Shown here: piece by piece, positions 5,632 to 61,400 of the stretch
How positions within the stretch are numbered: position 1 is the first letter of the stretch
Layout of the letters: each line of letters starts with the position of its first letter
Virus record (IMG/VR): IMGVR_UViG_3300010049_000009
Location: 1 to 64,000 of that record
From: a virus
Taxonomy: Duplodnaviria > Heunggongvirae > Uroviricota > Caudoviricetes
Length of the DNA stretch: 64,000 bases
Reading direction: 5' to 3' (one strand)
Position numbers and translations under genes: made by a program
The notes under the pieces: model-generated
What the model saw: only the letters and a program-made list of their open reading frames with translations
Databases searched by the model: none
What the model was told of the DNA's origin: nothing

Positions 5632-5706
5632 AGCGGTGTATTTCAATGGTTAGAATGACGGTCTCCAAAACCGTAGATGGGAGTTCGAGTCTCTCCACCG
5701 CTGCCA
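5632..5706 (+). tRNA. trnW: tRNA-Trp (anticodon CCA), with encoded 3' CCA
   Basis: acceptor stem AGCGGTG/CACCGCT, anticodon stem ACGGT/ACCGT, loop CTCCAAA, T-arm GGGAG-TTCGAGT-CTCTC, all folded by eye. Confidence 0.8.
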
Positions 5707-7594: not shown

Positions 7595-8665
7595 ATGAAA
7601 AGATTTTTTATGTATTTGGTAGCAGTAATGGTATTATTTACTGCGTGTGCGAAGGATGCTTTGCAGGATGAATCAGCTTTGAAAAGTGCGCAAAACATTG
7701 CAAAGGCTGTTGATGTGAAAACAATACTTTCAACTCATGGTGAGTGTATTGCGGATTTTAACGACATTGGTTATGACCAACAATGGTTTAACAAATTCGG
7801 AAAACAATTGAACGGTTCGGGTTTCCACAAAGTGGATAACGGAGTTAATTTTGAAAAGAAGGGTAACGATACGTGGTTACATTTTGATGAAGAAAACGAA
7901 GCGGGTATAGTAACCGTTGCTTATAAGAATGGTAATTATTTTGCGTTCTTCAATTTTGACGCACAGTGTTTAGCGGGTCAATCGGTGTATTTTGACGGTA
8001 AGATTTACAGTGTATTAAAATGGGATTATGATGCGGAAGGAAGTTTTGCGAAAATTGAATGTCCTTATCCTGATACCGATTTCACTGAGTTGTTTGATAA
8101 TATTGTGTTCGTACAAGAAATGGGGTTAGTAAATGGACAAGCGTGTTATACAGAAGATTCGTGGGCAACATTGTGGTTAGCACTTCAAACCGCTGCTGCT
8201 TTAACAACTGAAATATGTGTATCACAAGAAGACGTTGACGCTGCTGCAAAGGATTTAATGGATGCGTTTGACGCTTTAATTTACAAGGTAACTGCTGACG
8301 CTTTCTTCATTAATTTGAATAACCTTACAAATCAGGTTTCCCAATCCATTAAAGAAACGTATGTATATCCATTCTTCCCTGATATGACCGATGATGAAAT
8401 TGAATCGAAATATGGTGGTGGTGCACAAAGAACGTTGGTTGTATTAACCTTATTCAATGATTGTTTATACACACCATTCGGAACAGTAAAATCATGGCTT
8501 GCAGAGGGCACACAAGGCGACAGCGGTACAACGGGTGTGAACACCTTTGCTGATGACAATGTAATTGTAACCGTTAATCATAGCGCACGTTCAGGTGAAC
8601 AAGTATTTTCTTGTACCTACGGTTCTTTTGTTTATAAAGGAAATCCGGTTGTAACTTTGAAGTAA
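7595..8665 (+). CDS. secreted lipoprotein (356 aa), function unknown
   Basis: N-terminal signal with a lipobox LFTAC-AKD. Confidence 0.55.
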   Translation: MKRFFMYLVAVMVLFTACAKDALQDESALKSAQNIAKAVDVKTILSTHGECIADFNDIGYDQQWFNKFGKQLNGSGFHKVDNGVNFEKKGNDTWLHFDEENEAGIVTVAYKNGNYFAFFNFDAQCLAGQSVYFDGKIYSVLKWDYDAEGSFAKIECPYPDTDFTELFDNIVFVQEMGLVNGQACYTEDSWATLWLALQTAAALTTEICVSQEDVDAAAKDLMDAFDALIYKVTADAFFINLNNLTNQVSQSIKETYVYPFFPDMTDDEIESKYGGGAQRTLVVLTLFNDCLYTPFGTVKSWLAEGTQGDSGTTGVNTFADDNVIVTVNHSARSGEQVFSCTYGSFVYKGNPVVTLK

Positions 8666-8685: not shown

Positions 8686-8721
8686 AAAAAATCCGATATA
8701 TTTCATATCGGATTTTTTTTG
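8686..8721. terminator. bidirectional rho-independent terminator (AAAAAATCCGATAT...ATATCGGATTTTTTTT)
   Basis: perfect 8-bp stem with A-run and T-run flanks. Confidence 0.65.
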
Positions 8722-8737
8722 TTACTCTACATAGTAT

Positions 8738-9118
8738 TTAATATACTATTTCAATGAAATTAAACTTTAATTTAATGATAAAGGCATACTCCTCTCCCGA
8801 TTCTAACATATCGTCATCATCGTGTTCATAAAACCAATTGATTGTTACACCCTTGTTGGTTTCATTAACTTTTTCCAATTTCTTGAAAACATCTAATAAA
8901 CATTTGGAAGTACCTGTATTAAAGTATTCCAATTTTATGTTGACGATTGTTTCCGGTTTTGCTGTTTTAACATAACCGTCTATCCATTCGACCAGGGGTA
9001 TGAAAAAATCAATTGAATTTTCAAGAAGTGACCTTCCTTTAATTTCAAGTAATCCCTGTTCAGCATCAAATACAATAGTCGGGGTTCGTGCCGTTCCTTC
9101 TAATATTAGTGTGTCCAT
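8738..9118 (-). CDS. DUF1987/SiaC-like partner-switching protein (126 aa)
   Basis: LEGTARTPTIVFDAEQGLLEIKGRS...PLVEWIDGYV...IKLEYFNTGTSKCLLDVF...NWFYEHDDDDMLESGEEY recalls the DUF1987 (SiaC) consensus, including a Thr-rich phospho-site region. Confidence 0.4.
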   Translation of the reverse strand: MDTLILEGTARTPTIVFDAEQGLLEIKGRSLLENSIDFFIPLVEWIDGYVKTAKPETIVNIKLEYFNTGTSKCLLDVFKKLEKVNETNKGVTINWFYEHDDDDMLESGEEYAFIIKLKFNFIEIVY

Positions 9119-9168: not shown

Positions 9169-9384
9169 CTACACAAGTCCCAAATTCTTCAAATAGTTAT
9201 ATTCATCGCTTCCCTCTTCAACGGTTTCTATTTGATAGTTTTGAAGGCGTTTGGCAACGTGTTTTAAATATTCTAACTCTTCCTCACCCATTGCACAGTT
9301 GGGGATACAAGTATTAAGGTGCGACAATAACCTTGTGGCAAAGGTTTTATCACCCCAAACTAATCTATCATTCTTTTCTATCAT
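9169..9384 (-). CDS. hypothetical small protein
   Basis: ORF. Confidence 0.35.
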   Translation of the reverse strand: MIEKNDRLVWGDKTFATRLLSHLNTCIPNCAMGEEELEYLKHVAKRLQNYQIETVEEGSDEYNYLKNLGLV

Positions 9385-9396
9385 TTTATTTATGTT

Positions 9397-9852
9397 TTAA
9401 ATTTTCACACCCATTTTTAATAAACAAACTTTTAAATAGTTAAGTTCTTCGTTGATTTCTTCCACTATGTGCGGAATGAACTTATTGCGTAGTCGTTTAA
9501 AAGATAAATTTTGTACAGTGTCGTGTCCAAATTTTGGGGCATCATGCATTGAATACTTATATGTATTTCCCTTTTCAAGAGTACCCCCATTTTCAGGATA
9601 TTTCAACACAAACCCTATAAAACCATTATAGTTCATTTTTGGAGTTCCAAGTAGATTTTCTTTAATTTCGTTGAGAACATCCATCTGCTTCTTAACCTCT
9701 ATCAACATATCAATATCTTCGTATTTCACAGTTGGTATGTTGGCAATTTTCTCACGCAATTCGTTTTTTTCTTGTATGTGTTGATCCTCGTCAAAGTTCG
9801 GTCCGGGATTCATTATTGACCGATATACCCCGCTTTCATCCATATATCCCAT
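9397..9852 (-). CDS. hypothetical protein (151 aa)
   Basis: ORF. Confidence 0.4.
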   Translation of the reverse strand: MGYMDESGVYRSIMNPGPNFDEDQHIQEKNELREKIANIPTVKYEDIDMLIEVKKQMDVLNEIKENLLGTPKMNYNGFIGFVLKYPENGGTLEKGNTYKYSMHDAPKFGHDTVQNLSFKRLRNKFIPHIVEEINEELNYLKVCLLKMGVKI

Positions 9853-9856
9853 ATTC

Positions 9857-10903
9857 TTAAATATTTTTATTATTAATTATCACTTGTCTATATACACCCG
9901 CCATGGTTGCTACATTTACGGTTGATTCTCCCCAATGTATTATTGTATTTTCTTCCACATATTTATTAACCAACCCATTAAAATTTTCTGCTATAATACC
10001 ACTATTTTTTAAATCATCAAAAAACTTGGTTCCATACATATTTTCATATTCAGCGATTGTTCGACCCCTCCAATATGAACCATATAATCCCCCCCATGAA
10101 AACCTTGTTGCCGCTTTTAACCAATCAACCATAACTCCTTTATCACCAATGTTGGGGTTTTCCAAATGACAATCATGACATAAGAGAACAATGTTATCAG
10201 GAGTATTAGTGCCTCCCAATGCTTTGGGAACTATATGACACTCTGTTAATCTTCTTTTTTCACTACAACGCCAACACCGCTCATGCGCATCAGACCAATC
10301 CACATTTAGTTCACCCTCATATATTTGTTGTTCCCAATACCTCACAATTTGTTCACGCCTTGTTGATAAGTCTTTTGTATAATAATGGGTTTCGGGGGAT
10401 ATTTCGTTCTTTGTATAGTTTTGTTCTTCAAACACTTCACCCATTTTATTTTTAGTGGGTTGCAATATTATTTTTAATACATTATTCAAATATCTTTTAC
10501 TTTTGAAAAAATTTTCCGCACGTCTAATTAATCCATTTACAATTTCTTTTGTTTGATATTTGGGTTTTGGTATTATAATAATCATTTTACCGTATTCTTT
10601 ATCATTGAAAAGGTGTGTTTCTTTACCCATTGCTACAAACCCCAAAATTATTCCTTCCGGTGTAGCGTCATCTAAACTTGTTTCTGCTTTCACCACTTCA
10701 ATATCATAGTTATCTATTAGAAATTGATCTTTTCCAAAATATTTATTACCAATTTGAATAATTTCTTTTATATCTGTTTTGGATTTTTTATTTAATGTTT
10801 TTATTTCACATATTAAGGGATATTTTTCACCCTTTTCATGTATATAACCACCAACTTTTAATGCTTTCATTATATTAATTGTTTTAAACTTTCTATATTC
10901 CAA
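9857..10903 (-). CDS. HNH endonuclease with a ~200-aa N-terminal domain of unknown function
   Basis: C-terminal CWRCSEKRRLTECHIVPKALGGTNTPDNIVLLCHDCH is a canonical HNH motif. Confidence 0.65.
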   Translation of the reverse strand: MEYRKFKTINIMKALKVGGYIHEKGEKYPLICEIKTLNKKSKTDIKEIIQIGNKYFGKDQFLIDNYDIEVVKAETSLDDATPEGIILGFVAMGKETHLFNDKEYGKMIIIIPKPKYQTKEIVNGLIRRAENFFKSKRYLNNVLKIILQPTKNKMGEVFEEQNYTKNEISPETHYYTKDLSTRREQIVRYWEQQIYEGELNVDWSDAHERCWRCSEKRRLTECHIVPKALGGTNTPDNIVLLCHDCHLENPNIGDKGVMVDWLKAATRFSWGGLYGSYWRGRTIAEYENMYGTKFFDDLKNSGIIAENFNGLVNKYVEENTIIHWGESTVNVATMAGVYRQVIINNKNI

Positions 10904-11547
10904 GCGTCTTCATACAATTTTTTGATTGCTGCTAACGCTACTTTTTTAAGGTCATCACCAACATAGTCTTTGTTATCAACCCATTCATTGGTGGTTTTAT
11001 CTTTTACTTGATATTTCTGAATAGAGCGTGAACCTATACCCGCAAAATTCGTAAATAATAACGGTGTGTCGTGAAATCGTTGAAACCCTTCCATCTTGTT
11101 TACCCAAACATACCAACTTTCTTGACTAAAATCAAAAACATAAACCAACTTATTTAATGATATTGCGTATTGAACAGCGTAATTTGTTCCACCCCTCACG
11201 CCTTGAAAATCAGGTTTCATTTCAGCAACAGCGTAGATTGCTTGTGCGTGTTTAACCTGATAATAGTTTCGTGCTTTGAGGTCGTCTGCATACGTTCTCT
11301 TAACTGTTTTTAACTTTTTTTTATCAAAACATTGTGCCATGAACTTATAACACTCTTCCATTTGAATATTATCCATAATGGTAGGGTGGATATTAAATTC
11401 TTTCAGTTGTTTAGATACATTGGGGTTTTCTTCCGGTCTGAAATGAAATTGTCTATCAGGAGTAATACCATACTTCAAACCATACACACCAAATGCTGTA
11501 TCTGCGCCGTATGCGCCACCACTATATAATTTGTGATTTGTTAACAT
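10870..11547 (-). CDS. Rossmann-fold protein, possibly SLOG/DprA-like
   Basis: SGGAYGADTAFG ... VRGGTNYAVQYAISLNKLVYVF resembles the DprA/Smf GxARGxDxxAH and SGS..TA..A motifs; weak. Confidence 0.3.
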   Translation of the reverse strand: MLTNHKLYSGGAYGADTAFGVYGLKYGITPDRQFHFRPEENPNVSKQLKEFNIHPTIMDNIQMEECYKFMAQCFDKKKLKTVKRTYADDLKARNYYQVKHAQAIYAVAEMKPDFQGVRGGTNYAVQYAISLNKLVYVFDFSQESWYVWVNKMEGFQRFHDTPLLFTNFAGIGSRSIQKYQVKDKTTNEWVDNKDYVGDDLKKVALAAIKKLYEDAWNIESLKQLI

Positions 11548-11840
11548 GGTATGGGGTTTTTATGATATTTACTTTCATATAACGAAGAAAGATTTTCATC
11601 CAAAGTACCTGTTATACCTGCGGTAAAATCTAATATTTCCCAATCCTTTTCTTCCCACGTTTTTTCTTCAATGCGTTCCAAATATTCTTTAAAACAACTT
11701 ATCCACTCGTGAACCGTAAATTCTGTTGGGTGATTTTCATCCTTTTCTATATCGTCTGCTACACCCAAGATATATTGGTCTAAACCCCTTTGAGCAAATT
11801 TAGCAAACCCCTCTAACGTTAATTGTCTTTCCTGTATCAT
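11541..11840 (-). CDS. hypothetical acidic protein
   Basis: ORF. Confidence 0.4.
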   Translation of the reverse strand: MIQERQLTLEGFAKFAQRGLDQYILGVADDIEKDENHPTEFTVHEWISCFKEYLERIEEKTWEEKDWEILDFTAGITGTLDENLSSLYESKYHKNPIPC

Positions 11841-11907: not shown

Positions 11908-12627
11908 ATGAATAATATTCAACAACAATTACTAAAAGAGGTTAAGCGTGGTCAATCAGGTTACGGATTTCTATTTGAGAATGACGGATTTGTTGATCCT
12001 ACTAACCAAAAACATATGTTAAATGAAGACAGAGATAGAAGTGAATGGTATATACCATTTCCTTATATTATCCACGCCGTCTTTCAAAAAGCGGATACCC
12101 CAAACGCCAACGGTAGAATATACCCAAGACCAATATTAGAAAGAGAACTTATAAAATATCAACTAAAAATCAGTGAAAGAAGGGCTTATGGTGAAAGTGA
12201 CCACCCCGAATCAACCATTATATCCACAAAGGGTATTTCAATGAACATTATTAAATTATGGTGGGAAGGAAAAACTATTGTGGGTGATTTGGAAGTACCA
12301 CTATCACATGGATTTGTGAAGAATGGTATTTGTAGCACTCCGGGAGATATTATTGCGAATAATATTTATTATAATAGGTTGAAACTTGGTGTTTCTTCGA
12401 GAGGTGTGGGTTCCGTGGAAGCAGGAAAAAACAATATTAATGTTGTTGGAGACGATTTTGAACTTTTGTGTTGGGATTGGGTGACTGACCCTTCAACACC
12501 GGGTGCTTGGACAGCAAAAGATATGAGTGATTTGAAACCTTATATTGAAAACACAGAAATCAAAACTTGTGAAAAGAAAATATTCATCATTGAAAAAGTT
12601 GATAAAGTATTACAAATTATAAAATAA
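11908..12627 (+). CDS. T4 gp21-like prohead core protease
   Basis: GRIYPRPILERE, YGESDHPE, LWWEGKTIVGDLEV, LGVSSRGVGSV and AWTAKDMS align with recalled T4 gp21 segments (KRLYPKRILEKA, GELNHPP, MWWKGNDVYGRARV, GVSSRGLGSL, AWVTPKE). Confidence 0.6.
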   Translation: MNNIQQQLLKEVKRGQSGYGFLFENDGFVDPTNQKHMLNEDRDRSEWYIPFPYIIHAVFQKADTPNANGRIYPRPILERELIKYQLKISERRAYGESDHPESTIISTKGISMNIIKLWWEGKTIVGDLEVPLSHGFVKNGICSTPGDIIANNIYYNRLKLGVSSRGVGSVEAGKNNINVVGDDFELLCWDWVTDPSTPGAWTAKDMSDLKPYIENTEIKTCEKKIFIIEKVDKVLQIIK

Positions 12628-13796: not shown

Positions 13797-14630
13797 TTAC
13801 CTCCCCACTTGTGGTAAATTAATCAAAGGTACACCGGAACCACCACTATACATAGGGAGTTTTCCATCCCACTTTTCGATAGCGTATTGTTGAACGAGTA
13901 ACATATTAAGTGATGCTGCAACAACCCTGTTGTAGTATGCTTCGCCGTCACCCTTAATTTTCAAGGCTTCCGCTTCACCACGCGCTTTAGTTACTTCGAT
14001 TTCCGCTTGTGCTCTTGCACGAGCGACCTCATTTTCCGCCCTCATCGCTTCCTGTACCATTCGGTTTCTTGAATCAATCGCCTCTACCAAACTTGCCGGT
14101 GGTGCAATCGCAGCCGTAAATTCAACAACCTGAAAACCTTGACTACCTAACGATTGTTCGAGCATTTCTCGGACTTGTGCCTCAAACTCACCACGCTTCG
14201 CCATTAATTCATCGGATGTGAAGAGGTTCCCAACAGTTCGATAAGCGTCAAACACACAGGTTAGAATAAATCCTTGTTCGATTTCCTTTATGGGTCTACG
14301 ATATGTTAAAAACACATCAATCGCCTTATCGGGATTCAAACGGTACGCCAAGTTTGGTGTGATACGGAAAATTGCCGCATCCTTCGCATTAACGGTGATT
14401 TCACCATACGAAACTCGTTGTACGTACACCGGATACTGATGTACACTCTGTGTAAAGGGGTTAAACCACACAAAACCACGTACAGTTCCCATTACACCAC
14501 CTTGTTTCTCTTCCGAAACACTCCACTTGTGGAATTTAATACCAACCGAGGTCGAATCGACCGTGGTACAACTTTGGGCGAACATCATAATCGCCACTAA
14601 ACTCAAAATCCAAAAACTTCCTTTCTTCAT
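13797..14630 (-). CDS. SPFH/band-7 (stomatin/HflK/C-like) lipoprotein
   Basis: lipobox MFAQSC; SPFH core with a coiled-coil EAMRAENEVARARAQAEIEVTKARGEAEALKIKGDGEAYYNRV. Confidence 0.7.
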   Translation of the reverse strand: MKKGSFWILSLVAIMMFAQSCTTVDSTSVGIKFHKWSVSEEKQGGVMGTVRGFVWFNPFTQSVHQYPVYVQRVSYGEITVNAKDAAIFRITPNLAYRLNPDKAIDVFLTYRRPIKEIEQGFILTCVFDAYRTVGNLFTSDELMAKRGEFEAQVREMLEQSLGSQGFQVVEFTAAIAPPASLVEAIDSRNRMVQEAMRAENEVARARAQAEIEVTKARGEAEALKIKGDGEAYYNRVVAASLNMLLVQQYAIEKWDGKLPMYSGGSGVPLINLPQVGR

Positions 14631-14694: not shown

Positions 14695-15693
14695 TTACTT
14701 AAAAACGTTACGATTTTCCCTAAAGAATTTCAATAACGTGGTTTCAGACCAACTAACCCTTTCGTCTGAACGAGAGGTTGGGGCAAACTTTTGTTCTATC
14801 GCGTCAATATACATTGTGTGAGAAAAATCATCACCTTGATAATTTTCTTCCCAATATTTCGGCGGAATCTTGTTTTCCATATCCAACTGCTCAATAGAGA
14901 GGTTGTCGAAACTGATAACATTGGTGTAAGATACAATTTTAATAATATTCCGATCCCATTCCACAATATTATTCTTAATATCCTCTGAATAAGATTTATA
15001 GTAATCTAATCCTCTACCAAACTCTTTATAACCAAGCAATAGAAACTTTCGTAATCCGAAGCGGTCTCTTAACTGTGTTATAATTTCCGGTGTGTGTAGA
15101 CCTATAATAAGGTGCGCAACTGTGTGTTCATACTTCAAAAAATACTCTTCGTCTGCTGAACACTTATCAATACCTTCTATTGGAATTGATACACCTAACC
15201 CATAAATCAATTTTTCTTCCATATAACGTTTCAATTCAACCGCATTACTTCCATGTAAGTGGTGAAAATTAACCGTCAAACTAGGGAATATCTTTTTTGT
15301 TTGACAGAATTGAAGAAGTAGTGGGAGGTCGGGATGTGATAATGGATTACCGCCGCCGACTGCCATTTCCTGTCCACCTGGTAACACATCCAAAACTTCT
15401 ATCAACGCATTTATATCAGCGTGTTTTCCGTGAAAATGTGATTTTTCATGACAAAAAGCACAGGGTTTAAAATCACCCATACCATATTTAGATGGTATGC
15501 CCACACATTGGTTTGTGATTTTTATATCCATACTGTTCGGATAGTCAAACACAACAGGTTTGGTTTCGTCAAACTCCATTATTCGTGTACCATCTTCAAA
15601 AAGTTGGACTTTTACATTACCGTTTTGGTAGTTTATTATTTCTTTCATTGTGTTTTTTAAATTAACAATCATTTCCGAATTTTCCAAAAGCAA
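14695..15693 (-). CDS. radical-SAM-like protein with a non-canonical CX14CX2C cluster motif
   Basis: C-VGIPSKYGMGDFKP-C-AF-C (exactly 14 and 2 spacing) followed by a GGGNPL glycine-rich motif. Confidence 0.4.
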   Translation of the reverse strand: MLLENSEMIVNLKNTMKEIINYQNGNVKVQLFEDGTRIMEFDETKPVVFDYPNSMDIKITNQCVGIPSKYGMGDFKPCAFCHEKSHFHGKHADINALIEVLDVLPGGQEMAVGGGNPLSHPDLPLLLQFCQTKKIFPSLTVNFHHLHGSNAVELKRYMEEKLIYGLGVSIPIEGIDKCSADEEYFLKYEHTVAHLIIGLHTPEIITQLRDRFGLRKFLLLGYKEFGRGLDYYKSYSEDIKNNIVEWDRNIIKIVSYTNVISFDNLSIEQLDMENKIPPKYWEENYQGDDFSHTMYIDAIEQKFAPTSRSDERVSWSETTLLKFFRENRNVFK

Positions 15694-17023: not shown

Positions 17024-17710
17024 ATGATGGTAAACATAAAAAAATTGTACAAGTATGGTTACTTGGAAATAGAAGGTGATAGTGAAAATATATGGTTCAC
17101 ATCGGACTTACACTTATATCACAAAAACATTATCAAACTTTGTAATAGACCATTTGCTGACGTTGAGGAAATGTCAAATACATTGGTCGAAAATTGGAAT
17201 AGTGTGGTTAAAGAAGATGATTTGGTATTCAATCTTGGGGATTTCTGTTGGTCAGAATGTTCTATCGTTTGGTCAAAACTCATAGATAAACTTAATGGTC
17301 GTCAAATTTTGATAAAAGGAAACCACGATCACCCCAAAACATTACAAAAATTATCCGATAAATATTCTCTTATTGAAGTTTGGAAACCAGGGTCTAATTT
17401 CCCAATTAAGAATTTGAATAAGTTATTTATGATAAGAGAAAGTTTAGAGGTGCGCCACAACGGGGAACGCTTTCTACTTAATCATTACCCACAAGCACAT
17501 TATGTTGGACAATATCATTCCGTTAGACAAATATTTGGGCACACCCATGAAAAATCATGTGCATATTCACCCAATCATTACAACGTTTGTGTTGAGCGAA
17601 ACCTGTATCGCCCTGTATCATTGGAAGAGGTGGGAATGTTGCTGACAATGCAGTGTCGGGATAACGAAACAAATTATTTTTTAGAAGACCTACTATATAA
17701 AGAAACATAA
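17024..17710 (+). CDS. calcineurin-like metallophosphoesterase
   Basis: FTSDLHLYH ... LGDFCW ... KGNHDHP (DxH/GD/GNHD motifs). Confidence 0.6.
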   Translation: MMVNIKKLYKYGYLEIEGDSENIWFTSDLHLYHKNIIKLCNRPFADVEEMSNTLVENWNSVVKEDDLVFNLGDFCWSECSIVWSKLIDKLNGRQILIKGNHDHPKTLQKLSDKYSLIEVWKPGSNFPIKNLNKLFMIRESLEVRHNGERFLLNHYPQAHYVGQYHSVRQIFGHTHEKSCAYSPNHYNVCVERNLYRPVSLEEVGMLLTMQCRDNETNYFLEDLLYKET

Positions 17711-18240: not shown

Positions 18241-18621
18241 ATGGTACATACAATTATAATCGGTGTTTGGATGACATTGTTATTTATAACATTGTCTGTT
18301 GTTTTCGTATATATGTTTAAGAAACCAAAACATAATATAAACGAGGTTTTTGAACAAATATTTAAGAAACAAGTTGATTTGTTAAAAAAAATTGACGAAG
18401 AAAACACAATGCAAGTAGAGGTGTTTGATAAACTTAACCATAATATTGTAGAGAATTATCGCATACTATTGCAAATACAAATAAAAGAATCTATTAAACA
18501 CAACCCCTTTGAAACAGAACATATTCTAAAATTATATAACGATTACATTGGTATTGCCAAATATCCGAACACAGTTTTAGATGATGCGGTTAATGAGTGG
18601 AGAAACCTATACGGTTATTAA
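18241..18621 (+). CDS. small membrane protein
   Basis: N-terminal TM. Confidence 0.45.
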   Translation: MVHTIIIGVWMTLLFITLSVVFVYMFKKPKHNINEVFEQIFKKQVDLLKKIDEENTMQVEVFDKLNHNIVENYRILLQIQIKESIKHNPFETEHILKLYNDYIGIAKYPNTVLDDAVNEWRNLYGY

Positions 18622-19217
18622 CAAATAAATTCCACCATACCACTATCCAAATAGAGATATGCGCCAACAATTTTTATATCACCATTTTTTTCCTTTTCAC
18701 GTAAAAAACGATATTCCCGAATTGTATTTACAGATTGTTGAACATTTGTTCGACACACCAAATCAAAGAAACCAGGATTAGACGATACGGTTTCACCACC
18801 ATAAATAATATCCGCACTTGCTCGTACCGCCGGTAGTATTGGGCGAAGTTTTCCTAACAAACCCCAATCCTTTTCCTCTGTATCAATAACACGTTTGACA
18901 GCAGCACAATTATCATGTCCCAAAACCATTACCAAATTCACGGAAGGAAAACTACAAGCAAATACCAAATCAAATAAAATTTCATTGGTAATAACATTCC
19001 CCGATGTGCGAATTGTAATAACATCACCCGCACCCAATTTAAAAATATCTTCAACCACAATACGAGAATCTATACAAGTTACTATCACCGCTTTCGGTGT
19101 TTGTTCCTTAATACTATGGGGTTTGTCGTTAACATATTCTTTGTTACGACATTTTAAAACTTCAAGTGTCGGGTGAGGCACTTCTTCTTTCTTTTTGAAT
19201 TTAAAAAAATCTTCCAT
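18618..19217 (-). CDS. beta-class carbonic anhydrase
   Basis: CIDSRIV...GDVITIRTSGNVI...VLGHDNCAAV matches the beta-CA CxDSR / HxxC zinc-ligand signatures. Confidence 0.7.
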   Translation of the reverse strand: MEDFFKFKKKEEVPHPTLEVLKCRNKEYVNDKPHSIKEQTPKAVIVTCIDSRIVVEDIFKLGAGDVITIRTSGNVITNEILFDLVFACSFPSVNLVMVLGHDNCAAVKRVIDTEEKDWGLLGKLRPILPAVRASADIIYGGETVSSNPGFFDLVCRTNVQQSVNTIREYRFLREKEKNGDIKIVGAYLYLDSGMVEFIC

Positions 19218-20193: not shown

Positions 20194-20958
20194 ATGAGTA
20201 TTCAAGAAGAAGAAATAAAGAAATTGAAGGAGGAAAATGAGTTGTTGAAAAAGCGTTTGGATAACGCAAACAAACTCAAATCAACCTTTCTTGCTAATAT
20301 GAGCCACGAAATTAGAACACCGTTAAACGCTATTGTGGGGTTTTCTAATTTTTTAACCGAATGTGAAGAATTAACCGAAAGTGAGCGCAACGAATTTATT
20401 AACATTATTCAACAAAATAATGATTACTTATTGAAAATCATTGACGATATTTTAGAACTCTCTAAAATTGAAAGAGATCAAGTCTTTATTAATAATGTTA
20501 AACTGAAACTAAATCAGTTTTTAGGTGGATTGATTAATGAGAATAAGAAAAAAATTAACCCCAATAGGAAAGTCGAATTAATATTAGACGATGTGGATTT
20601 TATTGAAAATTGTCTTATTGAAGTTGATGCCATAAAATTAGAGCAGATACTTAATAATCTTATTGATAATGCTATTAGATTCACATTGAGTGGATATGTG
20701 TTAGTTGGGTATAAACAAATACCGGGTTTCATTGAATTTTATGTTGAAGATAGTGGAGTTGGAATACCCAAAGAAAAATTAGAACACGTTTTTAATAGTT
20801 TTTACCAAATCAATAGTGCTATATGTCCCGATTCGGGAATGGGCGTTGGGTTATTTATTTCAAAAAACTATGTTAAAAGAATGGGTGGTGTTATGGGTGT
20901 AAGTTCAGTCGAAGGTGAAGGTAGTAGATTTCATTTTACCATACCATATCTTGTATAA
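20194..20958 (+). CDS. cytoplasmic sensor histidine kinase (HisKA + HATPase_c), no TM and no sensor domain
   Basis: H-box FLANMSHEIRTPLNAI; N box NNLIDNAIRFT; G1 VEDSGVGIP; F box FNSFYQ; G2 GMGVGLFISK; N-terminal coiled coil. Confidence 0.8.
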   Translation: MSIQEEEIKKLKEENELLKKRLDNANKLKSTFLANMSHEIRTPLNAIVGFSNFLTECEELTESERNEFINIIQQNNDYLLKIIDDILELSKIERDQVFINNVKLKLNQFLGGLINENKKKINPNRKVELILDDVDFIENCLIEVDAIKLEQILNNLIDNAIRFTLSGYVLVGYKQIPGFIEFYVEDSGVGIPKEKLEHVFNSFYQINSAICPDSGMGVGLFISKNYVKRMGGVMGVSSVEGEGSRFHFTIPYLV

Positions 20959-26525: not shown

Positions 26526-28442
26526 TTAATTAACTTCTTCCGCTTCCTGTGGTCCACCGGCGGTTGCTTTACTGAAATCAAAATCACCAAATGGGTTGTC
26601 CGCACCCATATTAGCAAACGGATTGCTTGGGTTTCCACCACCAGGGTTATTTGCCGCATACAATCTTGTTGAAATCGGTATCCACACCTCATCCATTTTC
26701 TTTGCTAACTCATCCACCTTTTCGTGGTTTTCGGTTTTAATAACTTCCTTCAATTCGTCAATCACCGTTTGGATTTTTATTTTTTCCTCATCGGTAATTT
26801 TATCACCCATTTCGTCAATTTGTTTTTCGGTTGAGAAAATTATGGAGTCCGCCTTATTCATAGCTAAAACCTTTTCCATTTTTTTCTTATCCGCTTCGGC
26901 GTTATCTTCTGCTTCACGTTTCATTCTTTCAACCTCTTCTGACGATAATCCTGATGAAGATTGAATGGTGATATGTTGTTCTTTGTTTGTCCCTTTATCA
27001 GTTGCTTTAACAGACATAATACCGTTGGCATCAATACTAAATGTTACCTCTATTTGTGGTGTACCGCGCCTTGCCGGTGGAATACCATCTAAATCAAATT
27101 GACCTAATAGTTTATTATCATTGAAAGAGGGGCGTTCACCTTGGGCTACGCGAATGGTTACTGCCGGTTGGTTATCAACTGCTGTGCTGAAAATTTGTGA
27201 TTTTGAAACAGGGATTGTTGTGTTCGCATCAATAAGTTTTGTGAACACACTACCCATAGTTTCGATACCTAATGAAAGTGGTGTGACATCTAAAAGTAGA
27301 ACGTCTTGTGTTTCACCACTTAACACAGACCCTTGAACTGCTGCTCCAAGGGCAACAACTTGGTCGGGATGTACACTTTTGTTTGGTTTTCTCCCAAAAA
27401 ACTTCTCAACAGCCTCTTGTACAGCGGGAATACGAGTACTACCACCAACAAGAATTACTTCGTCAATATCACTTGTGGTTATACCTGCGCTTTTCAATGC
27501 TGATTTACAAGGTTCGATTGTGCGTTTAACGATAGTTTCTATCATTTGTTCAAATTTCGCACGTGTAATCGTTTGCACGAGGTGTTTTGGTACACCGTCA
27601 ACCGGCATAATGTATGGAAGATTTATTTCTGTTTGAACTGAACTTGACAACTCAATTTTCGCCTTCTCAGCGGCTTCTTTCAGGCGTTGTAATGCCATTG
27701 GGTCTTTTTTCAAATCAATGGCGTATTCCTTATTAAATTCGTCAGCAAGATAATTTATAATGACATGGTCAATATCATCACCCCCCAACCTTGTATCGCC
27801 GTCAGTGGATTTGACTTCAAACACACCACCACCGAGTTCAAGTATTGATATATCGAATGTACCCCCACCGAAGTCAAATACAGCAATTTTCATATCGTCT
27901 TTCTTATCTAAACCAAAAGCCAATGCTGCTGCCGTAGGTTCATTAATTATACGAGCGACTTCTAATCCGGCTATTTCACCCGCTTCTTTGGTTGCTTGAC
28001 GCTGTGAATCGGAAAAATAAGCCGGTACAGTGATAACTGCTTTAACCACCTCTGTTCCAAGAAAATCTTCCGCTGTTTTCCGCATTTTTTGCAGGATTAT
28101 TGCTGAAATTTCTTGTGGGGAATATTCTTTATTTTCAATTTTAACACGAATAGTGTCATTAGTACCACTTACAAGTTCGTATGCAACTTTATCCTTTTCG
28201 TTGTTGATTGAACTATATTTTTCACCCATAAAACGCTTTATGGAATAAACCGTTTTTGTTGGATTAGTTACCGATTGGCGTTTCGCGGAATCTCCCACAA
28301 CACGCTCACCGTCTTTTATAAAACCAACAATTGAGGGGGTGGTGTCCTTCCCCTCACCGTTTGGAATAACCATTGGCTTACCACCTTCTACTACTGAAAC
28401 ACAAGAGTTACTTGTGCCTAAATCTATACCTATTATTTTCAT
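26526..28442 (-). CDS. dnaK: Hsp70 chaperone DnaK
   Basis: [19 protein letters not shown]..., DLGGGTFD, full-length 638 aa with an acidic C-terminus. Confidence 0.9.
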
Positions 28443-28459
28443 ATTAAATATTTATTTTT

Positions 28460-28927
28460 TCAATTTATATCAATTTTTCTAATTGTGGGTTGTTCGGTAG
28501 AACTCCACATTTTATCTATAACAATCTCCAAAATACCATCCACAATATGTGAAGTAGTAGTATCTAAATCACAATCTTTTGGAATGGTAAATGTTTCTTT
28601 ACCGGGTTTTGTGTTGAAATGAAAACCATTATCACGTGGTTTATACTCCACAGTTAGAGTATAATCTTGTAATGTGATTTCAATATCATTTTTTGATAAT
28701 CCTGGAACCAACAATTCAATCGAATGAGTGTGTGCATCACTCTCGATATGACAGTTTGATCTACCTATACCGTATGATACAGTATAACTTGGTGGCGCAA
28801 TTATGTCTTGCGCACGTGGGAGAATACCCCACCATGGGCTTGTATCCTCACTTGGTAAAAAATCACCCACATGAAATCTATATGGATAATTACCTGTACC
28901 TGTTCTTATGTTACAACAACTTTTCAT
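28460..28927 (-). CDS. small heat-shock protein (Hsp20/alpha-crystallin-like)
   Basis: alpha-crystallin-like core IELLVPGLSKNDIEITLQDYTLTVEYKPRD...FTIPKDCDLD...DGILEIVIDK. Confidence 0.5.
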   Translation of the reverse strand: MKSCCNIRTGTGNYPYRFHVGDFLPSEDTSPWWGILPRAQDIIAPPSYTVSYGIGRSNCHIESDAHTHSIELLVPGLSKNDIEITLQDYTLTVEYKPRDNGFHFNTKPGKETFTIPKDCDLDTTTSHIVDGILEIVIDKMWSSTEQPTIRKIDIN

Positions 28928-31947: not shown

Positions 31948-32778
31948 CTAATTTAACCTTTCTTCTCTAAATTCACAAATATCCAACAAACAAAAGTCTA
32001 TGTTATTTACCCTCGTTGTTTGTGTTGCATGAAAATGCCCATAATACCATTTTGATAATATTTTCTGATTATCTTTAATTTTATAGAAATTATTATCCAT
32101 TGTTTTACGCTCTGTATCCACATCATATTTCAATTGCATATCCACCATTATCCAACTTTGGATACCGCTCTTTGTATATGGATAAACAAATGACGGTGCA
32201 GTATGTGATGCAATAATATCAATGTTATTCGGGAATTTTTTATTGATTTCATCTATCTTTGATTCATTATATATGGGCATTTCACCTTCCCAATAATATT
32301 TTCTACCGGGTTTTTCACGTTCCCACCTCCAACGTTCAGTTCTATCAACACTCAATCCACCACCAATACATAATATATTTTTAGAAATGGTAAAGATTGG
32401 GGGTGCAAAATATAAAGAGTTGTCATCTTGTGGAAGTTCTCTTGTGTAAAATATTTCAATAACAGTGTAATCAGATACTAAATGAATGTTGGAATATGAT
32501 TTGGAATATACGCCGTCAAAATATTTTGGGTCATCGTGATTTCCTCGAACTACAACAAGGTGATTCTTTTTCTTTTTTAGTTTGCTGTTGAGTTTCTTCA
32601 ACTCCACTTTATTGTGTTCTTCGGAATGAAAACCAATACCAAAATCACCAAGTTGAATGATTACATAGTTTTCCAATTGGTATTGTACACTTGCTTTGTG
32701 TGCAAGGGTACTCCATTGTCCGTGAACATCGCCAACAAAGGTTAATCCATTGGCATCATTAAATTTTATTGTATTCAT
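31948..32778 (-). CDS. PPP-family-like Ser/Thr phosphatase / calcineurin-like metallophosphoesterase
   Basis: FVGDVHGQ ... LGDFGIG ... RGNHDD (GDxHG / GDxxxxG / GNH[DE]). Confidence 0.55.
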   Translation of the reverse strand: MNTIKFNDANGLTFVGDVHGQWSTLAHKASVQYQLENYVIIQLGDFGIGFHSEEHNKVELKKLNSKLKKKKNHLVVVRGNHDDPKYFDGVYSKSYSNIHLVSDYTVIEIFYTRELPQDDNSLYFAPPIFTISKNILCIGGGLSVDRTERWRWEREKPGRKYYWEGEMPIYNESKIDEINKKFPNNIDIIASHTAPSFVYPYTKSGIQSWIMVDMQLKYDVDTERKTMDNNFYKIKDNQKILSKWYYGHFHATQTTRVNNIDFCLLDICEFREERLN

Positions 32779-34933: not shown

Positions 34934-34986
34934 ATCATTTTTTCTATAAATATACAGTATTTTAAAATAACATTGAATTATATGTG

Positions 34987-35067
34987 AGCGGATAGTGGGA
35001 CTCGAACCCACACGCCTTTCGGCACTAGTTCCTAAGACTAGCGCGTATACCATTCCGCCATATCCGC
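34987..35067 (-). tRNA. tRNA-Leu (anticodon TAG), type II with long variable arm
   Basis: acceptor GCGGATA/TATCCGC; anticodon stem CTAGT/ACTAG, loop CTTAGGA; folded by eye. Confidence 0.7.
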
Positions 35068-35133
35068 ATATTATCACAAATATTTGCACTGTTATCATAG
35101 GTATTGATAATAGTGCAATTTTATTTGATAATG

Positions 35134-35206
35134 TATGAGTGGAGGGATTCGAACCCCCGATTTCGTGGTCCCAAACCACGCGCCATACCAACTTGACCAC
35201 ACCCAT
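35134..35206 (-). tRNA. tRNA-Pro (anticodon TGG), with an A1-U72 pair
   Basis: anticodon stem CGTGG/CCACG, loop TTTGGGA; T-arm GGGGG-TTCGAAT-CCCTC. Confidence 0.65.
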
Positions 35207-35213
35207 GTTGTTG

Positions 35214-35285
35214 ATGTTCCACCAGGACTTGAACCTGGACAAACAGATTCAAAATCTGTTGTGCTAACCATTACACAATGGAACA
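35214..35285 (-). tRNA. tRNA-Gln (anticodon TTG)
   Basis: acceptor TGTTCCA/TGGAACA (U1-A72 typical of Gln); anticodon stem ACAGA/TCTGT, loop TTTTGAA. Confidence 0.7.
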
Positions 35286-35291
35286 ATGTAG

Positions 35292-35364
35292 CTGGGATAG
35301 TAGGTCACGATCCTACGACCTGCGGATTAACAGTCCGATGCTCTACCAACTGAGCTATATCCCA
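35292..35364 (-). tRNA. tRNA-Asn (anticodon GTT)
   Basis: acceptor TGGGATA/TATCCCA; D-arm GCTC-AGTTGGTA-GAGC; anticodon loop CTGTTAA. Confidence 0.7.
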
Positions 35365-35370
35365 ATTTTG

Positions 35371-35443
35371 CGGTCGATGTGGGATTCGAACCCCTCCTCT
35401 ACCGTGACAGGGTAACGTGCTAACCATTACACTACACCGACCA
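35371..35443 (-). tRNA. tRNA-Asp (anticodon GTC); the T-stem pairs poorly
   Basis: anticodon stem TTACC/GGTAG, loop CTGTCAC (classic Asp loop); acceptor GGTCGGT/ATCGACC; only a 3-bp T-stem found by eye. Confidence 0.55.
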
Positions 35444-35448
35444 TTTTG

Positions 35449-35524
35449 GGTGAGAGAGGAGAATCGAACCCCCGACCTTCTGATCCACAATCAGACGCTC
35501 TAACCTACCTGAGCTACCCTCACC
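35449..35524 (-). tRNA. tRNA-His (anticodon GTG) with encoded G-1 opposite C73 (bacterial type)
   Basis: 5' G-GTGAGGG; anticodon stem TCTGA/TCAGA, loop TTGTGGA. Confidence 0.7.
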
Positions 35525-35532
35525 ATATATTG

Positions 35533-35605
35533 TAGTCGGTACGGGACTCGAACCCGTTTCTCCACCTTGAAAGGGTGGTGTCCTGACCAATTAGACGAAC
35601 CGACC
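35533..35605 (-). tRNA. tRNA-Glu (anticodon TTC)
   Basis: near-identical to the recalled E. coli tRNA-Glu core (TTCGTCTA..GGACACCACCCTTTCAAGGTGG); T-arm ACGGG-TTCGAGT-CCCGT. Confidence 0.7.
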
Positions 35606-35614
35606 ATATTTTTG

Positions 35615-35699
35615 TGGAAAGGGTAGGATTCGAACCTACGAAAGTCCGAAGACAGCGGAGTTACAGTCCGCCCCAATTGACCAACTATGGGACCTTTCC
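35615..35699 (-). tRNA. tRNA-Tyr (anticodon GTA), type II (bacterial style)
   Basis: acceptor GGAAAGG/CCTTTCC; anticodon stem GCGGA/TCCGC, loop CTGTAAC; long variable arm. Confidence 0.7.
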
Positions 35700-35745
35700 A
35701 AACATTTTATCCAAAATAATATTCACATATTATTCCGATCTTATG

Positions 35746-35818
<73 letters not shown>

Positions 35819-58412: not shown

Positions 58413-58476
58413 CTATTCTTCATTTATTTTATATAATATAAATAATAGAGATATTTTTCGTATATTTAAGTGTTAG

Positions 58477-58492
58477 ACTATTTATAAGAAAA
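58477..58492 (+). promoter_or_regulatory. conserved motif GACTATTTATAAGAAAA, 7 nt before the ATG of the giant ORF; a TATAAATA also at 58437-58444
   Basis: recurring motif family. Confidence 0.4.
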
Positions 58493-58498
58493 TTCATA

Positions 58499-61400
58499 AT
58501 GATAGATTTTGATTGGAATAAAGATTTCACTAATATTATAGAAACCACCGTAAAAGACCTTCTTAAAAAAGCGGAAAAAGAAACCAATGCCGACCCAACA
58601 CCGGAACAAGCAAAGGCGGGTAATTACAAGAAGGGAAGGGTAACTATTCAAGGGTTGGAAATTGCAATAGAAAATCCGAAGGGTAGTTATCGTAAGGGTG
58701 TAGACGCAAATGGTAAGGAATGGAAAAACAAAATGAATAACACATACGGTTATTTTGTTCAAACCAAAGCAATAGACGGTGACGCTGTTGATGTTTTTAT
58801 TGGTAGTTCCATAATGTCGGATAAAGTTTTTTGTATTGACCAATATAATGGAAATGAATTTGACGAAACCAAAGTAATGTTGGGATTCACAACAGCAGAA
58901 TACGCAAAAAAAGCATATCTATCAAATTACGAACCCGGTTGGAAAGGTTGTAAATATATAACGGAATTGGATATTGATACATTCAAAATGTGGTTAAATA
59001 ACCGCAAAGAAAAAAAACAAAGAAAACCTGTTCATTTTTATAAATCACTGATAAAAGAAGAAAACTTACTCAAAGAAAGTCTTGGTGTACGTGATGGGTT
59101 AACACCCATTGCGAAGGAAATTACTAACCGAATATTGGAAAATTGGAAAATGGGTATAACTGTTATATCAGGTATGAAAATTGAAGATGTTATGAGGACT
59201 CCCTATGAAGAACTTGAAATATTTTTACCTTATAAGGGTGAAATAGAAATAAGGGATGTTGGATTTATTGGAAAAATGTCTGTTGGTTTTAAACTTGTGG
59301 GTAAGGGTGATCGTTTAACTAATTCGTTTGTGGATGATGACCCCGATTTGGGTATTATAAAATCAACGATTGAAAATAATAAAATGATTATGCCACCCAC
59401 TAGAACTAAACCAAGTACTAAACCAAAAGCACCCCCTAAAATCACACGAAATATGTTTATATCTTCGTTTCAAGATAAAAATGAATTAATGACATTGGTT
59501 CTACATGAATTAAAACATGTGTGGGATTATTATATTTACATTAAAAAGAACACCAATTTTAATTTAGAAAAAACCAAAGTTTATCAAGTACAAGATAAAA
59601 TTGCAACATATATAATAGATAAGGTTAGGCAAATTGAAAAAGAATATCCCCATAAAAAAATATCCGATGAAGAATTAATTGAATGGTATGAGGATGAAGA
59701 AAACGTCTTTACCATACCTATTGATAAAGAAGAAGAAGATATTTTGGATAATAAAATAAGAAACGATTTGTTTGTTGTGGGTTCTAAACCACTAAAATTT
59801 GTTCCAAAAGATGATACTGTTCAAAAACTATTTTATTACACAGGAGAAACAAAAGAACTTGAAGCATTTACACAAGAGTCGTGGGAACAAATGTTATCCA
59901 ATGGAGGAAAATATAGAGAAACAAGTCTATGGGAAAAATATATGTGGTTGGTTGAAAAGGATAAAGAATTAAACCCTCTAAAAGGAGAAGAGTATATAAA
60001 CAAAATAAATTTTTATCATAGGTTTTACCCATCAAGTTGGTCAAGAGATAAAGTAGAAAAGGATATCAGGTGGCGTTTAAAAAAAGGTATCCGGGATTAT
60101 GTTTATAATATCGGTAGATTACGTGCAAGGTATGATAACCCCCCCGAAACACCGGAGACACCGGAACCCCCTATTACCGAAAATAAACAAATTATTAGTT
60201 CGGTAATAAGTCCGTATCACGGTGTAATAGGTAGTGCCGCACCCGGTAGCGAAGAATATGAAATAGGAGTGGAAATATCAGAGGGATTGAATATTAATAA
60301 CATTGTTAAGGATATTCTGTTTGAAGGTAAAGAGAGTAAAAATTTATCCAAAGCTCGAAACTATTTAAAAAACATACATAGTTTAACACAAGAAAAAGCA
60401 CAACTTGTTTTAGATAACATAAGACACCTCATTCACAATTCACGAATTGAGAATTGTAAATATATGACAGGTCTTGCAAGAATGGCAATTACTAATCAAT
60501 TGAGTGATCAAATTACACAAAGTAATATGAACAAAACATTGAAACTTTTAGAGGGTCACACTGATTACAATGAAGATTTGAATGGTTTGTCGGCAACAGA
60601 ATTAATTAATCGTTTTCAAACCGCCGTTCAAGAAGATTTGGAAAAAGATAAAGAAACCCAAAAACAATATAGTAACACTAACACCGATGGTAATTACAAT
60701 GGATATAAAATAGTTCCCATAAACGATTTTGATGACGCAAAACAATATAGTTTTGGCGTTAATTGGTGTATAACAGAAAGTGAAAGTTCTTTTGAAACAT
60801 ATACTAAAAATGGGTTAGCACGTTTTTATTTTCTTTTGAAAAATAGATATGAATTTATGAGTTATGAACTTCATGATAAAGAAGGAAGTGACCCATTAGA
60901 CGAATACGGATTAAGTAAGATTGCTATTAGTGTTAATGAAGATGGTTCATTAAATAGTTCCACATTAAGACGAAATCACAATTTTGGTGCTAATGATAAT
61001 ATGTTAACTACCGGACAGATAAGTAAACTAATCAACGCAAACTTCTACGAAGTGTTCAAACCCTATTCAAAAGAAGAATTAATTGAAAGAAAAGAAAAAT
61101 TGAAATTTTTTAGACCCGATAATCTGAATGAGTTAATTAGAAGGGATAAAATGGAGTTGGATGATTTGGAACAAGTAGGGGAAAGAATAGTTAGTAGAAT
61201 TATTTACAAAAATCGTTGTAATTATATAACACCTGACGAAGCGGGAGAAATTGTTGATAATAACGGAAAACGTTATTCTGTTGTATTTTCTAAATATGAA
61301 AGTGGTTTTACAGGATGGATGCCCTTTAACAAAGTAAATAAATGTTTAATATTGGTGATTGATAAAACCTACAACATAGGTAGGGTAGATGGTACAATGA

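Follow-up and report, generated by a model that had tools for sequence, protein, structure and literature searches.

SiaC-type switches are known experimentally only from the SiaABCD biofilm network of Pseudomonas, in which residue T68 of SiaC is phosphorylated by SiaB and dephosphorylated by SiaA (PMC7278518; PMC8457831; PMC7647112). Unphosphorylated SiaC binds and activates its target, the stalk of SiaD, via N67, T68, S69 and neighboring residues, and phosphorylation of T68 blocks this binding; the unphosphorylated state turns on cyclic di-GMP (c-di-GMP) synthesis and aggregation (PMC7278518; PMC8457831; PMC7647112). The residues of SiaC in contact with SiaD are 10, 29, 31, 65, 67-69, 71, 75, 103, 107, and 110, and S69 is part of the SiaD-binding triad (PMC8457831). 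SiaC is structurally related to STAS anti-sigma-factor antagonists such as SpoIIAA, RsbV, and HsbA (PMC7647112; PMC8457831), and proteins of its family, DUF1987, have been suggested to modulate “adjacent proteins” (PMC8457831). The wider family (4,708 clusters at 50% identity), including the cassettes of Bacteroidales, is essentially unstudied. Here we describe a SiaC-family gene at 8738-9118, minus strand, of a 64,000-nucleotide stretch (positions 1 to 64,000 of IMG/VR record IMGVR_UViG_3300010049_000009; hereafter the window) that belongs to a ~368-kb T4-module jumbo phage. The family itself is known; what is new is its orphan phage context, which is lineage-specific and has one independent viral parallel.

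The open reading frame (ORF) runs from an ATG to a TAA codon and encodes 126 residues (MDTLILEGTARTPTIVFDAEQGLLEIKGRSLLENSIDFFIPLVEWIDGYVKTAKPETIVNIKLEYFNTGTSKCLLDVFKKLEKVNETNKGVTINWFYEHDDDDMLESGEEYAFIIKLKFNFIEIVY; hereafter phage SiaC). Its ATG is supported as the start because cellular homologs begin MDTL or MExL at the equal position. The preliminary description of this DNA had assigned the ORF to DUF1987 from a pattern of motifs, all of which (LEGTARTPTIVFDAEQGLLEIKGRS..EN, KLEYFNTGTSKCLLDVF, and NWFYEHDDDDMLESGEEY) are found in the translation, and a Pfam scan settles the assignment decisively: PF09345 (SiaC) matches far beyond chance (E 4.5e-40, 136.5 bits, gathering cutoff 24.5 bits), aligning residues 7-123 to profile positions 2-119 of 120. 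Among PDB sequences the sole real match by phmmer is P. aeruginosa SiaC (6kko, 6kkp, 7e6g, and 6k4f; E 1.5e-14). Comparison of structures gives the same answer. An AlphaFold2 model built from 40 homologs (predicted local distance difference test score, pLDDT, 89.9; predicted template modeling score, pTM, 0.84) has the order of elements E-E-E-H-E-H-E-H-E, the SiaC fold of a mixed β-sheet and three helices, and its eight top PDB matches are all SiaC chains, with template modeling (TM) scores of 0.84-0.88, a root-mean-square deviation of ~2 Å and E ~1e-10; the best superposition is on 6kko_D (TM 0.88). That the ORF is a genuine, intact SiaC-family (DUF1987) protein in the context described here is close to certain.

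Phage SiaC shares with P. aeruginosa SiaC (PA0170; PDB 6K4F, 6KKO, 6KKP, and 7E6G) the PF09345 domain, its length and α/β fold, the N67-T68 site at the N-terminus of helix α2, and an acidic α3 region. The two differ in that identity over the structural alignment is 25-27% and S69 is replaced by glycine in the phage. The NF038265 model “biofilm regulation phosphoprotein SiaC” matches phage SiaC at 84.7 bits (E 4.7e-24), short of its equivalog cutoff of 150 bits, and judged by these profiles the phage protein is a member of the SiaC family and not an ortholog-level equivalent of Pseudomonas SiaC. With the STAS antagonists it has in common the type of a small α/β protein, in which an anti-sigma-type kinase phosphorylates a Ser/Thr at the N-terminus of helix α2 and a PP2C enzyme removes the phosphate again. 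Beyond this the resemblance is slight: no Pfam match to the STAS hidden Markov model (HMM; PF01740) was obtained at E up to 0.1, and the nearest STAS-like structure, 1vc1, is a weak match (TM 0.48-0.53, E 0.017).

The preliminary description had also noted that SiaC is a threonine-phosphorylated switch protein, and the corresponding site is present in the phage protein. N67-T68 of phage SiaC align exactly with N67-T68 of P. aeruginosa SiaC, and T68 is the first residue of a predicted helix (68-87). The predicted phospho-acceptor lies in the motif N67-T68-G69-T70-S71-K72 and is encoded by an ACA codon at 8915-8917 on the minus strand. For a view of the whole family, 104 diverse single-domain representatives (mean pairwise identity 36%) were drawn from the exhaustive search that yielded the 4,708 clusters. 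A threonine or serine occupies the phospho-acceptor position in 100 of them, and phage SiaC keeps all 17 positions that are at least 80% conserved among them (P13, G22, G28, S30, E33, F38, P41, W45, Y49, T57, Y65, N67, T68, W95, D101, G108, and F119). Phage SiaC thus has the features of a normal, apparently functional family member, as far as sequence can tell.

Measured against its nearest clade the protein is more unusual. Of the 72 columns conserved to at least 90% in its 196 nearest cellular homologs, phage SiaC departs from them at 18, vs. an average of 0.9 and a maximum of 10 for the cellular proteins, and in a neighbor-joining tree it sits on a long basal branch (terminal branch 0.205 vs. 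a cellular mean of 0.034). The deviating residues include K11R, I31L, P32L, Y39F, S69G, S70T, A107S, D110E, and P118K, and the positions at which it differs from the nearest host clade probably set partner specificity. Five of these changes (S69G, S70T, P32L, A107S, and D110E) map to the surface with which Pseudomonas SiaC touches SiaD (PMC8457831). They could be read to mean that the SiaC fold has been repurposed in a phosphorylation-independent manner, its binding face serving a stoichiometric inhibitor or sequesterer of a host enzyme or defense component. Small protein inhibitors are common among phages, which lends this idea some general support. Against it stand the retention of T68, N67, and every family-wide conserved residue and the fact that the variants fall within normal family variation; nor did PADLOC give a match for SiaC or SiaB, and the cellular loci examined have no defense-island context. 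We regard repurposing as quite unlikely. A claim that the interface has been remodeled was rejected on similar grounds, as the variant residues all occur among the 104 representatives (G69 in 12, T70 in 18, L32 in six, and F39 in 28) and no family-wide residue is lost, which amounts to divergence from the nearest clade. Since the same residues occur elsewhere in the family, the clade deviations argue neither for nor against function.

The nearest cellular relatives of phage SiaC are “DUF1987 domain-containing” proteins of Bacteroidales/Bacteroidota of 125-128 aa, colinear from M1 to the C-terminus. The nearest non-self database proteins are ~62% identical, and identity is 55-64% when genomic loci are included. 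All 80 of the best genomic relatives are from Bacteroidota, mostly metagenome-assembled genomes (MAGs) of Bacteroidales. In the first contexts inspected, the gene preceding siaC encodes a DUF6272 (PF19788) protein that scores 139-149 bits against the SiaB-family kinase model NF038262 (cutoff 85). The arrangement is nearly universal: among 80 GTDB species loci, of which one is cut by a contig end, the SiaB HMM places SiaB directly upstream on the same strand in 78 of the 79 evaluable. Functional coupling of the two proteins is reinforced by SiaB-SiaC fusions elsewhere in the family. The Bacteroidales loci examined have neither a PP2C gene of the SiaA type nor a GGDEF gene of the SiaD type next to the pair, so the cellular system appears as a two-gene kinase/substrate cassette, and cassettes of this kind are the likely source lineage of phage SiaC. 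The phage copy differs from them in having no SiaB beside it.

Several further features of these cellular loci and of the family were recorded. The single locus lacking SiaB upstream (L013, 5088-6001) has 900 bp there with no ORF of at least 80 aa and no detectable SiaB remnant, and its MAG carries a normal SiaB-SiaC pair on another contig (L012). Some Bacteroidales hold two SiaB-SiaC cassettes a few kb apart (L006, 1934-2882 and 7416-8381; L088, 243-1167 and 5400-6378); the SiaC of the second cassette is much more divergent (29% identity to the phage protein), and serine replaces T68 (NSASSK). In the wider family (proteins P0121-P0270) there are many tandem SiaC-SiaC proteins of ~250-270 aa, a triple-SiaC protein of 654 aa (P0129), and the fusions of SiaB to SiaC (P0126, P0135, P0145, P0211, and P0260), and none of these tandem, triple, or fused forms appears to be described in the literature searched. 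A fused ABC ATPase/permease of ~1,020 aa is convergent to siaC in 61 of the 80 Bacteroidales loci (L009-L088), and RlmL, an S41 protease, and GMP synthase are likewise found repeatedly beside the cassette. These neighbors were set aside as evidence of a functional link, since the arrangement looks like housekeeping synteny shared by related genomes. The ABC protein could conceivably be an output of the switch, though its position probably reflects conserved synteny.

In the phage, no partner for SiaC was found. The SiaB HMM, run unfiltered on six-frame ORFs of the window and of loci L001 and L008 (the second viral locus, described below), gave nothing better than E 0.18-0.3 (0.3 in the window). 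A hidden SiaB among the upstream genes was considered and rejected, as the 151-aa and 225-aa ORFs show no similarity to it by HMM or by profile-profile alignment (hhalign probability 0.2-0.3% against the SiaB profile); a single-sequence AlphaFold2 model of the 151-aa protein (pLDDT 53) is unreliable. No PP2C/SpoIIE, GGDEF, STAS, or Ser/Thr kinase family was detected in Pfam scans of the larger window ORFs and in precomputed hits (window 1-19 kb). Thus, siaB, siaA (PP2C), and siaD (GGDEF), the other members of the SiaABCD network, were not found in the 64 kb of phage DNA. Two calcineurin-like metallophosphoesterases are encoded at 17024-17710 (plus strand) and 31948-32778 (minus strand) (phrog_547, E 2e-44; PF00149, E 3.5e-12). 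They were dismissed as a SiaC phosphatase, as they match only generic phosphoesterase PHROGs and neither is like a lambda-phosphatase-type enzyme; among PDB entries, one matches only a hypothetical protein and the other only a spurious antibody chain. A link to defense or anti-defense was also discarded: phage SiaC, cellular SiaB, and the cellular SiaC paralog all lacked a PADLOC match at E up to 0.01.

The only kinase among the scanned window ORFs is of the two-component type, a 254-aa soluble histidine kinase at 20194-20958 on the plus strand (HisKA, E 2e-19; HATPase_c, E 6e-24). It lacks sensor and transmembrane regions, no protein with a receiver domain was seen among the scanned ORFs, and a 39%-identical homolog occurs in a related phage (L089/L092). 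It is the second host-type signaling gene of the phage.

The preliminary description had spoken of a partner-switch protein. Of this the family, the fold, and T68 stand, and the partners do not: the window holds neither kinase nor phosphatase for it, and phage SiaC is not the Pseudomonas equivalog. For these reasons, and because its nearest relatives sit in uncharacterized cassettes, a switch function in the phage is inferred. Such a switch might be internal to the phage, with a phage-encoded target and a kinase or phosphatase elsewhere in the remaining ~300 kb, or with host SiaB activity being read for the timing of phage development. Most of the genome does lie beyond the window (a 367,985-bp contig vs. 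64 kb), and the phage has other signaling or stress genes, namely the soluble HisKA and HATPase_c histidine kinase, DnaK, and Hsp20. The suggestion that DUF1987 proteins modulate adjacent proteins (PMC8457831) would fit as well, and deviations at clade-conserved surface positions are compatible with a new partner. We consider an internal switch unlikely nonetheless, since no SiaB, PP2C, or GGDEF gene was found within 64 kb when 78 of 79 cellular loci have the kinase gene right beside siaC, the co-directional genes upstream lack similarity to SiaB, the 71-aa gene next to SiaC is kept in a relative that has no SiaC, and the second viral copy is likewise an orphan.

Tentatively, the best explanation as a whole is that phage SiaC is a bacterial-derived accessory protein that enters the SiaB/SiaC switch of the host. 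Under this explanation the phage would carry only the substrate or switch half of the siaB-siaC kinase-plus-substrate cassette, and the protein, once expressed in the infected cell, would join the partner switch of the host. With more SiaC but no more kinase, the ratio of substrate to kinase would rise and the unphosphorylated SiaC-like pool would grow. Three modes of action can be envisaged, according to the specificity of the protein. Phage SiaC could act as a substrate decoy that competes for SiaB and spares host SiaC from phosphorylation; in its unphosphorylated form it could act as a mimic and engage the target of host SiaC; or it could be dominant-negative and block that target. Either of the first two modes would detach what the switch puts out from control by the host itself. 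As a mechanism, such a hijack of the host switch is conceivable and put forward with some reserve.

Several points weigh against it. The clade deviations, including S69G and S70T beside T68 and P32L, might mean that recognition by host SiaB is lost. Phosphorylation of T68 by host SiaB, action on a target of the host and not of the phage, and both the nature and the direction of the output are all inferred. The 64 kb examined (~75 kb with flanks) are part of a genome of ~368 kb, elsewhere in which a phage SiaB, phosphatase, or target could lie. As the Bacteroidales cassettes have no adjacent SiaA or SiaD, a “hijack” comes without a defined phenotype. Homolog taxonomy is the single source of the host assignment. 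Finally, no relative of phage SiaC was found between 64% and 100% identity, for which reason purifying selection within phages is not measurable.

A stronger version would make phage SiaC a dedicated hijacker of the widespread Bacteroidota SiaB/SiaC switch, an orphan pseudo-substrate or mimic that soaks up the host kinase or sits on the SiaC target and thereby locks the host into behavior favorable to replication; by analogy with Pseudomonas, this behavior could concern aggregation or surface or envelope physiology. We hold this version to be doubtful. If true, no viral component of a SiaABC-type Ser/Thr partner switch would precede this one, large phages would have taken up such a gene on at least two independent occasions, and there would be a handle on the output of the Bacteroidales SiaB/SiaC system. 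More generally, a phage with only half of the switch is a natural experiment that suggests a host pathway worth manipulating during infection, and phage SiaC is a small probe for the host kinase and the downstream target of the Bacteroidales system. With it, Ser/Thr partner switching joins the regulatory layers of the host into which jumbo phages seem to reach. We regard it as a modest lead for phage manipulation of a widespread bacterial phospho-switch and not as a new kind of system.

Where did the phage gene come from, and how long has it been resident? Its GC content (32.5%; 29.9% at third codon positions) is phage-like, the nearest cellular loci having 39-46% GC, and this match to the phage indicates that acquisition was not recent. 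Related phages found by their prohead protease (L089/L092, a 135-kb contig, 76% identity; L091, 79%) share with the window the protease and a flanking 379-aa gene. Between these they carry other genes, including thymidylate synthase and a 634-aa lipoprotein-like protein, and neither SiaC nor SiaB was found in them. Phage SiaC therefore lies in a variable accessory island and is a lineage-specific accessory gene; its best hits, the Bacteroidales proteins at 55-64% identity, point to a bacterial origin. Scans of IMG/VR, which used exact patterns only, gave no close phage relative carrying SiaC when made with the single protein, and prohead-protease scans of IMG/VR and JGI metagenomes found relatives without SiaC. 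Could the gene be a neutral passenger, captured from a host without a role in the phage and awaiting decay? A hypervariable accessory island adjoining an HNH endonuclease is a setting where this might be expected, and the gene is absent from related phages, a singleton without close phage relatives. Yet its frame is intact and full-length, core residues are preserved despite ~40% divergence from any cellular relative, the phage-matched base composition implies long residence, a dedicated terminator follows it, and an independent second viral acquisition suggests repeated usefulness. A passenger is thus improbable; were it one, the finding would reduce to the correct annotation of an unusual accessory gene.

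The SiaC family is almost absent from viral collections, and a previous viral record of it was not found. Phage SiaC has no PHROG match at E up to 0.1, tblastn found nothing in 50,697 GenBank phage records, Foldseek returned no BFVD structure at E up to 1e-3, and no paper was found that mentions both DUF1987 and phage. A scan of IMG/VR with a profile-derived pattern revealed one further locus, L008 (IMGVR_UViG_3300022890_000011; 166.6 kb, 24.7% GC). Like the phage described here it has a single SiaC gene on a viral-classed contig, with no SiaB in the 20 kb examined; no phage hallmark gene was seen in those 20 kb, and its viral status rests on IMG/VR. L008 SiaC has 123 aa (PF09345, E 5.6e-40), its composition matches that of its contig, and it keeps the canonical NTSSSKC and RSIPENS motifs, with five deviations vs. 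18 in phage SiaC. The two proteins share only 55% identity and do not pair in the tree, each being nearer to cellular sequences than to the other, which implies that the gene was acquired independently in the two cases and each time as an orphan. In L008 it is directly followed by a TnpB/IS200-605-type transposase-like gene (10499-11722, plus strand; phrog_506, E 5e-59), and genes for ClpP, a rhomboid protease, and a Dam-type methyltransferase lie nearby; this suggests a possible route of gene capture.

Host-derived auxiliary regulatory genes are a general class in large phages. Phage SiaC resembles them in its location in a variable island of a jumbo phage that also carries DnaK, Hsp20, a histidine kinase, and carbonic anhydrase, and it differs from them in the lack of an earlier viral record. 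The phage setting given in the preliminary description is amply confirmed. The window (33.7% GC) encodes a T4-type portal (PF07230, E 2e-55), an S77 prohead protease 2.8 kb from SiaC (PF03420, E 2e-18; phrog_207, E 7e-33), virion structural and baseplate-like proteins matched by PHROGs, and, as a weak match, a gp19-like tail tube. Ten tRNAs are called by ARAGORN and Rfam alike, nine of them (Leu, Pro, Gln, Asn, Asp, His, Glu, Tyr, and Thr) at 34986-35818 on the minus strand and a separate tRNA-Trp at 5632-5706 on the plus strand. A contig of 367,985 bp is on record that carries SiaC and DnaK proteins identical to those of the window. All of the sequences are metagenomic assemblies, and it might be asked whether the gene is phage-borne at all or belongs to a chimeric assembly or a bacterial segment. 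This is extremely improbable, as there are phage genes on both sides (the protease, portal, structural proteins, and tRNA array), gene GC equals phage GC, and one ENA assembly and two Logan assemblies, made from different runs, show the SiaC gene with the same junctions at 99.99% identity, which speaks against a chimera. The same near-identity of the three assemblies leaves no variation for selection analysis.

The host is probably a member of the Bacteroidota, to go by homologous sequences: the best named relatives of the phage DnaK (66-69% identity) and the 80 best SiaC relatives are all from this phylum. The phage DnaK/Hsp70 is full-length (638 aa; PF00012, E 3e-245), encoded at 26526-28927 on the minus strand and followed by Hsp20. 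Relatives of 67-80% identity on other contigs of 135, 360, and 365 kb suggest a clade of chaperone-encoding jumbo phages. Other host-like genes of the window include a β-class carbonic anhydrase (Pro_CA) at 18618-19217, a Band_7/SPFH protein at 13797-14630, and a radical-SAM/Fe-S oxidoreductase-like protein at 14695-15672 (phrog_16999, E 2e-43), all on the minus strand.

Locally, a block of co-directional genes on the minus strand extends from 11840 down to 8738 and closes with SiaC. The end of the block is marked by a bidirectional intrinsic-terminator-like hairpin directly after SiaC (8686-8718; 14-15-bp stem, T-runs on both strands), which sits between the SiaC stop codon and a convergent 356-aa gene (7595-8665, plus strand) and serves both. 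With its place at the end of the block and a strong bidirectional terminator behind it, the SiaC gene looks expressible. Directly upstream lies a 71-aa gene (9169-9384, minus; phrog_24038) whose homolog in the related phage L089 makes up the C-terminal portion of a protein of 189 aa, and its conservation there, in a phage without SiaC, indicates that it is not a dedicated SiaC partner. It is preceded by the 151-aa ORFan (9397-9852, minus), for which no Pfam, NCBIfam, PHROG, or PADLOC match was found at the thresholds used and whose sole database match is itself. The HNH endonuclease and the Rossmann-type protein that had been noted in this block are both present, the former at 9857-10903 (minus; PF14279 and PF01844, E ~4e-7; phrog_7370, E 5e-9) and the latter as a 225-aa DprA-like protein at 10870-11547 (minus; phrog_768, E 8.6e-17) that has no Pfam or NCBIfam match. 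The first gene of the block (11541-11840, minus; 99 aa) diverges from the prohead protease gene (11908-12627, plus). Promoter matches at 11868-11836 are weak, and sigma-70-like matches are not above the expectation from shuffled sequence.

The prohead protease itself differs between the window and its relatives. In the related phages it has 603 aa (L089, 8624-10435; also L092 and L090) vs. 239 aa in the window, and its two homologous halves are split by an intein/homing-endonuclease-like insertion of ~360 aa, the window protease being uninterrupted. At the far end of the window, an ORF of at least 1,853 codons (58442-64000, plus strand) runs off the edge and is for this reason absent from the ORF list, which accounts for an apparent gene desert at 58.4-64 kb.

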